This document shows, one piece after another, positions 42,501 through 46,078 of a DNA stretch of 46,078 bases (positions within the stretch are counted from its first letter, which is position 1; each line of letters begins with the position of its first letter). Under the pieces are notes generated by a model. The model was given only the letters and a program-made list of their open reading frames with translations. It made no database searches and was not told the origin of the DNA. Position numbers and translations under genes: made by a program. Source of the stretch: a virus (Duplodnaviria > Heunggongvirae > Uroviricota > Caudoviricetes); the IMG/VR virus record IMGVR_UViG_2675903417_000003. One strand, written 5' to 3'.

Positions 42501-42651
42501 AGGTGCACACGCGCATACTGTCGGTATTGGTGCTCATACGCACTCCGTTGCGATTGGTTCACATGGACACACCATCACCGTTAACGCTGCTGGTAACGCG
42601 GAAAACACCGTCAAAAACATCGCATTTAACTATATTGTGAGGCTTGCATAA
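39580..42651 (+). CDS. stf: Side tail fiber protein Stf
   Basis: 1023 aa from [27 protein letters not shown]...; long Ala/Ser/Thr-rich repeats; C-terminal HxH-repeat distal domain. Confidence 0.9.
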
Positions 42652-43226
42652 TGGCATTCAGAATGAGTGAACAACCACGGACCATAAAAATTTATAATCT
42701 GCTGGCCGGAACTAATGAATTTATTGGTGAAGGTGATGCATATATTCCGCCTCATACAGGTCTGCCAGCAAACAGTACCGATATTGCACCGCCAGATATT
42801 CCGGCTGGCTTCGTGGCTGTTTTCAACAGTGATGAGTCATCGTGGCATCTCGTTGAAGATCATCGGGGTAAAACGGTTTATGACGTGGCTTCCGGCGACG
42901 CGTTATTTATTTCTGAACTCGGTCCGTTACCGGAAAATGTTACCTGGTTATCGCCGGAAGGGGAGTTTCAGAAGTGGAACGGCACAGCCTGGGTGAAGGA
43001 TACGGAAGCAGAAAAACTGTTCCGGATCCGGGAGGCGGAAGAAACAAAAAACAACCTGATGCAGGTAGCCAGTGAGCATATTGCGCCGCTTCAGGATGCT
43101 GCAGATCTGGAAATTGCAACGGAGGAAGAAATCTCGTTGCTGGAAGCATGGAAAAAGTATCGGGTATTGCTGAACCGTGTTGATACGTCAACTGCACAGG
43201 ATATTGAATGGCCAGCACTGCCGTAG
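42651..43226 (+). CDS. tfa: Tail fiber assembly protein Tfa
   Basis: 191 aa [48 protein letters not shown]... Confidence 0.9.
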
Positions 43227-43324: not shown

Positions 43325-43915
43325 TTATATGTCAGGTGTCTGAAGTTTTGCTTTGGCTCTTAAAATGGTTTGCCGCGAGGTTTTGAATTCCCGGGCAATG
43401 GCACTTATACTTACACCTGACTTAATTCGTTCGAATACCACCTGTTTCTGTTCTTCATTTAACACAGGTGGTCGACCAAAACGTTTCCCTGCGCCGCGGG
43501 CTCTTACTATCCCGGAATGAGTGCGTTCAAGTAAAAGGTCTCGTTCAAATTCAGCGACTGCTGAAATTACGTGCATCATCATTTTTCCTGTTGGACTGGT
43601 CAGGTCAATGCCCCCCAATGCTAAGCAATGCACTCTGATACCTGTTTCGGTCAGTTGTTCCACTGTTTTCCTGATATCCATTGCATTACAACCAAGGCGA
43701 TCCAGTTTTGTCACAATCAATTGATCACCACATTTCAGGCGAGCAAGCAACCGGTTAAAACCAGGACGCTCACTGGTTGCTGCTGAGCCGCTAATGTGTT
43801 CTTCGATTATTTGCTGAGGTTTGATTTTAAAACCTGCACTTTCGATTTCCCGGCGTTGATTTTCGGTGGTCTGATCCAGCGTTGATATCCGACAGTAAGC
43901 AAAAATTCGAGACAT
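43325..43915 (-). CDS. pin: Serine DNA invertase (Pin/Gin/Hin family)
   Basis: 196 aa [29 protein letters not shown]... with catalytic Ser near the N-terminus and a C-terminal HTH. Confidence 0.9.
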
Positions 43916-44231: not shown

Positions 44232-44465
44232 TTACATTTTACCATTTAAATTTTGGTTGTCTTTAAGAACTGATATCGCTGTTTGTAATAATTCTTTGTT
44301 ATCCAGCCATGATTTTTTCTTTATGTTTCCTTCAATGTAATCAAGCAATGTTCTGGTATTGATAGGTCTTCCCTGTTTTGCTACTTCCACTACAGCATCC
44401 CCTAGGATAATTCTTACTTCAGGAAGCTGCGCAGGGAACCACTTTAGGGTGTCTTTTGATTTCAT
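44232..44465 (-). CDS. ydfK: YdfK-like protein
   Basis: 77 aa MKSKDTLKWFPAQLPEVRIILGDAVVEVAKQGRPINTRTLLDYIEGNIKKKSWLDNKELLQTAISVLKDNQNLNGKM; AAGGAA Shine-Dalgarno. Confidence 0.8.
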   Translation of the reverse strand: MKSKDTLKWFPAQLPEVRIILGDAVVEVAKQGRPINTRTLLDYIEGNIKKKSWLDNKELLQTAISVLKDNQNLNGKM

Positions 44466-44533
44466 GAAGATATTCCTTAAAATATTATTGATTTTCATTG
44501 CGATATTGTATGTCTGATTCAGGATATGTTGAC

Positions 44534-44647
44534 TTATACATCGGTTTTGTCTGGGTTATTGGATATGCCAATCCCTAATTTTATTAGGGCATGACTAAAA
44601 ATGCTGAATATGATAAGGAGAGAAGTGATTATCAGTATGCTGTTCAT
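44534..44647 (-). CDS. Candidate small hydrophobic protein (37 aa)
   Basis: [37 protein letters not shown] with GAGG 4 nt upstream; a perfect palindrome CCCTAAT-TTT-ATTAGGG lies at 44573-44589 inside it. Confidence 0.3.
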
Positions 44648-45225
44648 ATAGCCTCGAATTAGTAATGTGTTATATATGATATAGTTGACAATTTTATCTT
44701 GGGTGTTCTTAAAGTTCGTAGATAAACATTGTCGTTTCAGGTATACAGGAATGCTAACAGGTGGCGGCAAAAATCAGGCGGTTTATGGCGCAATCTGAAG
44801 TGGCAACTGCAAACTATCTTATGCAGAGACTCTACACGGATTGGGTTTAAAAGTATACATAGATAACAGTTTTTATCTGAAGAAGAAAAATATCAAGGTG
44901 ATATAGCCTATATGCCTTTGATGTGGAGGAATGAATGTGATGGGAGTGATGTATCTGAATAGTTGAAAAACCGCAGACACACCTTATGCAAGAACGTGCT
45001 GCGGTTGGCTGGTAAATTTTTCGATAGTGCGAGTATTGAATGATTTCCAGCCGTTATTGATTTTACGCGTAAATCCATGAAAAAACTACTTATCTGTTGG
45101 GGAGTTTTTTGGGGCATATATGGGACAGAAATAGGCCCCAGATAGACACTGAGATCGAACTTAGGATGCTTTTAAAAAAATGCAACTATCTGAAAAAACC
45201 TAGAAAACGCCAAGGAAACCACAGG

Positions 45226-45911
45226 ATGGGAAAAAACACCTGTGAATTATGGATTTCCAGTTATATTCGCTCGGCGCAGCGTTAGTGTTTCATGAAATAT
45301 TTTTTCCTGAATCATCAACGGCAATGGCGTTAATTCTGGCAATGGGAACCTACGGTGCAGGTTATGTGGCGCGTATTGTCGGAGCATTTATTTTCGGCAA
45401 AATGGGCGACAGAATAGGGCGTAAAAAAGTGCTCTTTATTACCATCACCATGATGGGGATCTGTACCACCTTAATTGGTGTGTTACCGACCTATGCACAG
45501 ATTGGTGTTTTTGCCCCCATCTTGCTGGTGACGCTGCGTATTATTCAGGGATTGGGTGCAGGTGCGGAAATTTCCGGTGCCGGTACGATGCTGGCGGAAT
45601 ATGCGCCAAAAGGTAAGCGCGGAATTATCTCCTCATTTGTGGCTATGGGAACTAACTGCGGAACCTTAAGCGCAACGGCAATCTGGGCCTTTATGTTCTT
45701 CATTCTCAGTAAAGAGGAACTGCTGGCGTGGGGATGGCGTATACCGTTCCTGGCGAGCGTTGTCGTGATGGTCTTTGCTATCTGGTTACGTATGAATCTG
45801 AAAGAAAGCCCGGTCTTTGAGAAGGTTAATGACAGCAACCAACCGACAGCAAAACCTGCACCTGCTGGTAGCATGTTCCAGAGCAAATCCTTCTGGCTGG
45901 GGCTTTGTTGA
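45226..45911 (+). pseudogene. ydfJ: MFS transporter gene (metabolite:H+ symporter type, YdfJ-like), frameshifted near codon 8 and 3'-truncated by an IS
   Basis: MGKNTCE.. in one frame, then DFQLYSLGAALVF...GDRIGRK... from 45249 in another; the reading frame ends a few codons into the IS903-like repeat. Confidence 0.6.
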
Positions 45912-46078
45912 ATAAATCGAACTTTTGCTGAGTTGAAGGATCAGATCACGTATCTTCCCGACAACGCAGACCGTTCCGTGGCAAAGCAAAAGTTCAAAAT
46001 CACCAACTGGCCCACCTACAATAAAGCCCTCATCAACCGTGGCTCCATAACTTTCTGGCTGGATGATGAAGCTATTCA
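45901..46078 (+). mobile_element. IS903-like (IS5-family) element, left end, continues past the window
   Basis: Starts with the terminal repeat GGCTTTGTTGAATAAATCGAACTTTTGCTGAGTTGAAGGATCAGATCAC... Confidence 0.8.
45978..46078 (+). CDS. IS903-like transposase, N-terminal fragment (partial at window end)
   Basis: Frame VAKQKFKITNWPTYNKALINRGSITFWLDDEAI from a GTG start. Confidence 0.7.
   Translation, partial: MAKQKFKITNWPTYNKALINRGSITFWLDDEAI

Follow-up and report, generated by a model that had tools for sequence, protein, structure and literature searches.

Several reports place prophages in the ydfJ gene of Escherichia coli. Integration of Qin at the 5' end of this gene leads to the loss of 28 N-terminal codons and of the promoter (PMC6379469). 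According to the same report, which refers to K-12, the prophage parts ydfJ-ydfI from the rspAB side as well as from the ydfJ promoter. For E. coli strains W, K-12, B, and Crooks, Qin is listed as inserted at ydfJ (PMC3032704), and a 46.8-kb lambda-like prophage is situated between ydfJ and rspB in strain SE11 (PMC2608844). The attP of a ydfJ prophage has been amplified by PCR, and the legend of S7 Fig in that study gives an "18- or 19-bp att sequence" (PMC8112680).

In K-12 MG1655, the "cryptic prophage Qin" is annotated at 1632277-1652745 and ydfJ (b1543) is annotated from the residues MDFQLY. The displaced 5' end of ydfJ is ynfP, which lies some 20 kb away at the opposite end of Qin, beside the intQ pseudogene and rspB. 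This short gene encodes MTIEKHERSTKDLVKAAVSGWLGTALEFMDF-KSHAC followed by a stop codon.

The window analysed here is a stretch of 46,078 nucleotides (IMG/VR record IMGVR_UViG_2675903417_000003), most of which is a largely complete lambdoid prophage. We are highly confident that the region at its right end, 45226-45911, is the right junction (attR) where a lambdoid prophage of the Qin type was integrated into ydfJ, and that an IS903B element was later inserted in the same gene. A sequence-only reading of the same region had proposed instead a transporter gene damaged by a 5' frameshift and truncated at its 3' side by an IS903-like element, with a prophage junction at about 45245 as the alternative. 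All the sequence features on which that reading was built are present where it placed them, and it is their meaning that changes.

Matches to PHROGs profiles comprise a terminase large subunit, a portal protein, the central tail fibre J, a tail fibre assembly protein, and a DNA invertase, and lambdoid genes are found right beside the junction. According to coordinates transferred from the RefSeq record of strain CFSAN051542, these are tfaQ (42651-43226, + strand), the DNA invertase gene pinQ (43325-43915, - strand), ydfK (44232-44465, - strand), and ynfT (44534-44647, - strand). In CFSAN051542 the gene order is tfaQ, pinQ, ydfK, ynfT, ydfJ, ydfI, ydfZ, rspR, and ydfG. The non-coding right arm of the prophage, between ynfT and the att core, occupies positions 44771-45242 and is contiguous with ydfK/ynfT and with the ydfJ remnant in matching genomes (the ydfK/ynfT annotation was checked in the loci opened). 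The empty site lacks this arm and has a spacer of 57 nt between rspB and ydfJ.

A consensus scan of positions 44500-45400 found no promoter on the + strand from which the ydfJ remnant might be transcribed, which is weak negative evidence. Structured RNAs were also sought in the prophage arm and the ydfJ region and discarded, since the single Rfam hit was below threshold: CssrB, a chromosome-encoded small RNA of Shigella, at 44866-45003 on the + strand (22.8 bits versus a gathering threshold of 76, E 0.066). This hit, located between ynfT and the att site, is most likely due to chance.

At the left end of the window, an exonuclease gene (478-1641, - strand) is interrupted by an IS3-family element; of an 823-position PHROG profile, the truncated product covers no more than positions 1-322. 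Positions 37-123 on the + strand correspond to the 3' end of a group II intron (Rfam RF00029, domains V/VI, 64.9 bits, E 2.7e-12), and directly downstream (124-596, + strand) follows the region for the C-terminal portion of the transposase orfB of an IS3-family element. This arrangement looks like an intron inside an IS that in turn lies inside the prophage exonuclease gene. No full match to this left end was found in the genome collections searched.

The gene adjoining the prophage arm is ydfJ. When positions 44900-46078 were compared by megablast with 5426 complete E. coli genomes, 44900-45900 matched several strains at 100% identity, and four of these genomes annotate the matching feature as "ydfJ: MHS family MFS transporter YdfJ". 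In the one of the four that was opened, CFSAN051542, the RefSeq/PGAP annotation describes ydfJ as "missing N-terminus" and starts it at the base that matches 45249. The remnant in the window extends from 45249 to 45900 on the + strand and corresponds to nt 85-736 of the 1368-nt gene, that is, to codons 29-245 plus one base. It is devoid of the promoter, the first 28 codons, and the last 210 codons; of the 455 codons of the gene, numbers 246-455 (46%) do not occur in the window. Compared with the intact ydfJ of strain M217 (WP_000151243.1, residues 29-245), all 217 of 217 amino acids are identical, and the eight nucleotide mismatches are all synonymous. This identity, together with the position of ydfI directly downstream of the gene in matching genomes (ydfI itself lies beyond the window), identifies the remnant as the ydfJ ortholog.

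With respect to protein family, the open reading frame matches the Pfam models MFS_1 and Sugar_tr (E about 1e-22) and the NCBIfam model TIGR00883 for metabolite/H+ symporters, the latter with 306.7 bits in an alignment to positions 7-227 of its 400-position profile. This score is below the curated cutoff of the 400-position profile (443.45 bits), and the match covers only part of it, so that the remnant does not qualify as a full-length member. The intact M217 YdfJ reaches 462.9 bits, above the cutoff, and spans profile positions 1-400 with its residues 23-418; after TIGR00883, it matches best the models of the shikimate transporter and of ProP. The window thus holds a fragment of a true MHS-family member and no functional member. 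A literature search gave nothing tying ydfJ to L-gulonate catabolism, and no such link is claimed here.

The prophage-free site of M217 shows what the beginning of the gene looks like. There, ydfJ (1368 nt, 455 aa) is located directly between rspB and ydfI, and its product begins with MTIEKHERSTKDLVKAAVSGWLGTALEF-MDFQLY. Since this complete protein exceeds the TIGR00883 cutoff, the natural start of YdfJ is neither at MDFQLY, from which K-12 ydfJ is annotated, nor at MGKNTCE, the peptide that the sequence-only reading had taken as the N-terminus.

Positions 45220-45270 of the window read ...CACAGGATGGGAAAAAACACCTGTGAATTATGGATTTCCAGTTATATTCGC... and contain two ATG codons in different frames. 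The ATG at 45226 opens a short frame that encodes MGKNTCELWISSYIRSAQR and ends at 45285 (+ strand). This frame begins in the prophage arm, crosses the att site, and does not belong to ydfJ. It is a chance ORF: neither K-12 nor the RefSeq records consulted annotate it as a gene, it has no homology to the 5' end of ydfJ, and only two or three of the approximately 3184 genomes that bear the junction have it in frame with ydfJ. The ATG at 45249 opens the 220-codon MFS frame, MDFQLYSLGAALVF..., which remains open to 45900 and then continues with the residues GLC up to a TGA at 45909-45911, its product ending in ...FQSKSFWLGLC. The stop falls inside the sequence GGCTTTGTTGAATAAATC, which begins at 45901. 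Where a conserved EW-x-DF region had been read, the native residues are E-F-M-D-F, and the "ELW" is encoded by the att arm on the prophage side.

The att sites were compared three ways, with attB taken from M217, attL from K-12, and attR from the window. The empty bacterial site reads CTTGAATTTATGGATTTCCAGTTA, attL reads CTTGAATTTATGGATTTCAAGAGT, and attR reads TGTGAATT-ATGGATTTCCAGTTA. The three have in common an exact 11-bp core, TTATGGATTTC, at 45247-45257 of the window, so that the att core, which was to be located by comparing the two prophage ends, could be defined with the K-12 attL. The attR itself occupies 45243-45260 and is 18 nt long (TGAATT-ATGGATTTCCAG), whereas the empty attB, TGAATTTATGGATTTCCAG, has 19 nt. 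If a difference of one T is allowed, the shared site can be written as TGAATT(T)ATGGATTTC[C/A]AG, the phage version being 18 nt long and the bacterial version 19 nt. It can be presumed that the att sequence described as "18- or 19-bp" in the published figure legend corresponds to these two strings (PMC8112680).

Local alignment of positions 45000-45960 with the intact ydfJ plus 200 nt upstream covers 45243-45900, equivalent to gene nt 78-736, with eight mismatches and a single 1-nt gap, which falls in the T-run. Similarity to ydfJ ends at 45243, with the six bases TGAATT upstream of the exact core. Beyond that point, the 84 nt upstream of 45249 share only 26 of 84 positions with the true ydfJ 5' end, or 27 of 82 after a one-base shift (31-33%), which is the level of background similarity. 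In K-12, the sequence just upstream of ydfJ is identical to that of the window, the phage arm is joined to ydfJ at the same TTATGGATTTC, and the annotated end of Qin is the base that matches 45257. As judged by its junction, the prophage is of the Qin type.

The empty site was also reconstructed. Joining the ynfP side and the ydfJ side of K-12 in silico at ATGGATTTC restores a 455-codon ORF, and a 700-nt version of this site was found uninterrupted and at 100% identity in many genomes. At least 80% of the 700-nt query was matched in one place in 2010 of the 5426 genomes (about 37%). The left half of attL and the right half of attR thus exist in one piece, and ydfJ is complete there in M217, the one such locus opened. 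Occupied sites are more frequent: a 162-nt query spanning the phage-ydfJ joint was covered to at least 80% in one place in about 3184 of the 5426 genomes (about 59%). The half of the gene with codons 1-28 (ynfP) was seen in K-12 only, and the integrase gene and attL of the window's own prophage lie off the window.

Based on these comparisons, a phage tyrosine integrase would have joined an 18-nt attP, TGAATTATGGATTTCAAG, with the 19-nt attB, TGAATTTATGGATTTCCAG, across ydfJ codons 27-32, the exchange occurring inside the shared TTATGGATTTC. Because attL keeps the bacterial TTT and attR has the phage TT, strand exchange inside TTATGGATTTC would have taken place to the right (3') of the T-run. 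The reaction would split ydfJ in such a way that the promoter and the first 28 codons move to the far, integrase-bearing end of the prophage, as ynfP does in K-12, and codons 29-455 remain beside ydfI. In the window's prophage, attL would be expected as ...GCGCTTGAATTTATGGATTTCAAGAGT..., after ydfJ codons 1-28 and rspB. In the window, the phage arm abuts Met29 and carries, by chance, the out-of-frame ATG of MGKNTCE, and the att arm, one T shorter than the gene, mimics a one-base frameshift.

This last feature is what the frameshift proposal rests on. It holds that ydfJ suffered a one-base deletion near 45247 that put its own MGKNTCE N-terminus out of frame, and the missing base is real: at 45247-45248 the window reads TGAATT-ATGG where the intact gene has TGAATTTATGG, one T fewer, and the TGAATT upstream of the exact core does match ydfJ. 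However, the shorter T-run belongs to the att arm of the phage and is not a mutation of ydfJ. The intact N-terminus is MTIEKHERSTKDLVKAAVSGWLGTALEF and not MGKNTCE, the upstream 84 nt have no more than 31-33% identity to the true 5' end in either register, that true 5' end is present as ynfP at the far prophage end in K-12, and the DNA upstream of the junction is contiguous with prophage genes. The intact homologue, the empty-site reconstruction, and the lack of upstream homology together refute the proposal, which has practically no chance of being correct. Aligning the window with an intact gene from a prophage-free site, as the sequence-only reading had suggested, shows a real N-terminus that precedes MDFQLY, and with this the frameshift call falls. 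By the same token, the junction of the prophage near 45245 that it offered as an alternative is borne out by the identical K-12 junction, by ynfP as the displaced 5' end, and by the RefSeq annotation, in which the gene lacks its N-terminus and starts at the base that matches 45249.

A different explanation of the two frames is that the phage, like some others with integration sites inside genes, once supplied a replacement start, so that MGKNTCEF-MDFQLY was in frame with an arm of three Ts, and the two-T arm arose by a later frameshift. Adding one T does produce an in-frame ORF, MGKNTCEFMDFQLY..., and when this three-T version was built and searched for, it was matched at 100% in two genomes, BS-04 and HS-01. 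As the general state of the locus it has nevertheless been rejected, given that these were the only such matches and that three Ts occur in only two or three of the approximately 3184 junction-bearing genomes. In BS-04 (L008:2501-2662), a frameshift is annotated in the adjacent ynfT as well, an indication of homopolymer sequencing errors, and PGAP calls its ydfJ N-terminally incomplete despite the three Ts. Moreover, a leader of seven amino acids would stand in place of 28 residues that include the first six TIGR00883 positions (the profile starts at residue 23), and a working transporter from such a fusion is therefore unlikely. The two-T form of attP, TGAATTATGG, is what would be expected if the shorter T-run came from the phage. 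A replacement start is thus very improbable, and the three-T attR is probably a homopolymer sequencing error or a rare mutation rather than an ancestral fusion. Integration of a phage whose att arm is one T shorter remains the preferred reading of the 5' side.

On the 3' side, ydfJ is interrupted at 45901, where an IS903B element of the IS5 family (+ strand) begins with its left end; 178 nt of it (45901-46078) are visible before the window ends inside it. The IS-type interruption had been recognized from the sequence alone, and both the start of the element and the end of the reading frame had been located correctly. The window from 45901 reads GGCTTTGTTGAATAAATCG..., and its first 18 bp (45901-45918) are the terminal inverted repeat GGCTTTGTTGAATAAATC of IS903B. 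All 178 nt are identical to three annotated copies of 1057 bp, and 177 of 178 to a fourth copy of 1056 bp; these references are annotated as "IS5-like element IS903B family transposase". The transposase gene starts with a GTG at 45978, and its first 33 codons, with the N-terminus VAKQKFKITNWPTYNKALINRGSITFWLDDEAI, are identical to those of the annotated transposase. Each of the four other IS903B copies is flanked by a 9-bp direct duplication. In the window, the predicted 9-bp target site is TCTGGCTGG at 45892-45900, and a second copy of it would follow the right end of the element if the insertion was simple.

The element would have been inserted, in the lineage of this strain, at gene nt 736/737 (45900/45901). 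It is oriented like ydfJ, and the remnant frame ends after three codons encoded by the IS. The far end of a simple insertion would read ...GATTTATTCAACAAAGCC-TCTGGCTGG-CAACCGGG..., corresponding to the right repeat, the duplication, and ydfJ from nt 737 onward. The loss of the C-terminal half of the protein had also been asserted; the last 46% of the gene is indeed absent from the window, but the window ends inside the IS, and a loss from the genome goes beyond what can be seen in it. A deletion or rearrangement mediated by the IS (recombination between IS903B copies, or the end of a composite transposon), with loss of the 3' 46% of ydfJ and perhaps of ydfI, would be compatible with a window that stops inside the element and with a junction that none of the reference genomes shares: the 5426 complete E. 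coli genomes gave no match to it in a single piece, and the GTDB species representatives gave none that was exact. Many IS903B copies per strain are also possible, as a query that was about 60% IS903B matched up to 47 places per genome. Against this, in the two other ydfJ::IS903B alleles examined, an element of 1056-1057 bp was simply inserted and is flanked by 9-bp duplications, and the same holds for two unrelated IS903B copies. Since the 3' part of ydfJ is intact beyond the element in the two other strains, a simple insertion at 45901 is the likelier event, and we consider it probable; a deletion or rearrangement is rather unlikely.

IS903B has entered the ydfJ remnant independently at three sites, one of them in strain 81, one in AF44, and one in the window. 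The two complete copies (L002:4781-5837 and L005:3247-4304) have the same orientation as that of the window and are flanked by the duplications GCGCAACGG and TCAGTTCGA. That the ydfJ remnant is a recurrent target of IS903B is a minor possibility. In other genomes, IS1 is present at or near the ydfJ site.

Could a truncated ydfJ still be of use to lysogens? Six ydfJ copies, five of them prophage-bearing and one intact (the window and loci L001, L003, L004, L008, and L009), were compared codon by codon. They differ at up to 30 synonymous and at most two non-synonymous positions, and the window differs from the intact allele at eight synonymous and no non-synonymous positions; the K-12 ydfJ' is identical to the intact M217 ydfJ at 1284 of 1284 nt. 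Judging from these codon patterns, a remnant initiated at Met29 and kept partly functional in lysogens by purifying selection would be quite improbable. It is more likely that the synonymous bias results from gain and loss of the prophage, the gene having been intact through most of its history. Under either reading the remnant in the window is a dead pseudogene, and with the IS in place, residual function as a transporter is no longer possible in this strain.

For annotation purposes, the region should be labeled as the attR of a ydfJ-integrating lambdoid prophage with an IS903B insertion, and not as a frameshifted gene. An imperfect att core, in which attP and attB differ in length by one base, can mimic a frameshift when the displaced end of the gene is out of view. 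The locus has no bearing on open questions; a prophage scar at ydfJ and an IS insertion are ordinary, and both have already been described for this locus.

The closest known relative is Qin of K-12, with ydfJ (b1543) and ynfP (b4534) as the two parts of the split gene; its right junction has the same sequence as that of the window, ...GGATGGGAAAAAACACCTGTGAATTATGGATTTCCAGTTATATTC.... Both share the order tfaQ-pinQ-ydfK-ynfT-ydfJ' and the same truncation of 28 N-terminal codons. However, the prophage of the window is much larger and more complete, filling all 45 kb upstream, whereas K-12 Qin is a 20.5-kb remnant; and while the K-12 ydfJ' reaches its natural stop (427 codons), the copy in the window is cut by IS903B at codon 245/246. 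The PPydfJ prophages of STEC and commensal E. coli (PMC8112680) and PP_SE11-3 (PMC2608844) resemble it in their locus and lambda-like genes and, going by the figure legend, in an att site of 18 or 19 bp. Regarding the interrupting element, IS903B (IS5 family, IS903 group) has the same 18-bp repeat and transposase N-terminus, although only 178 of its approximately 1057 bp are visible here. Finally, intact YdfJ belongs with ShiA, ProP, and KgtP in the MHS family and passes the TIGR00883 cutoff, whereas the copy in the window retains only profile positions 7-227.
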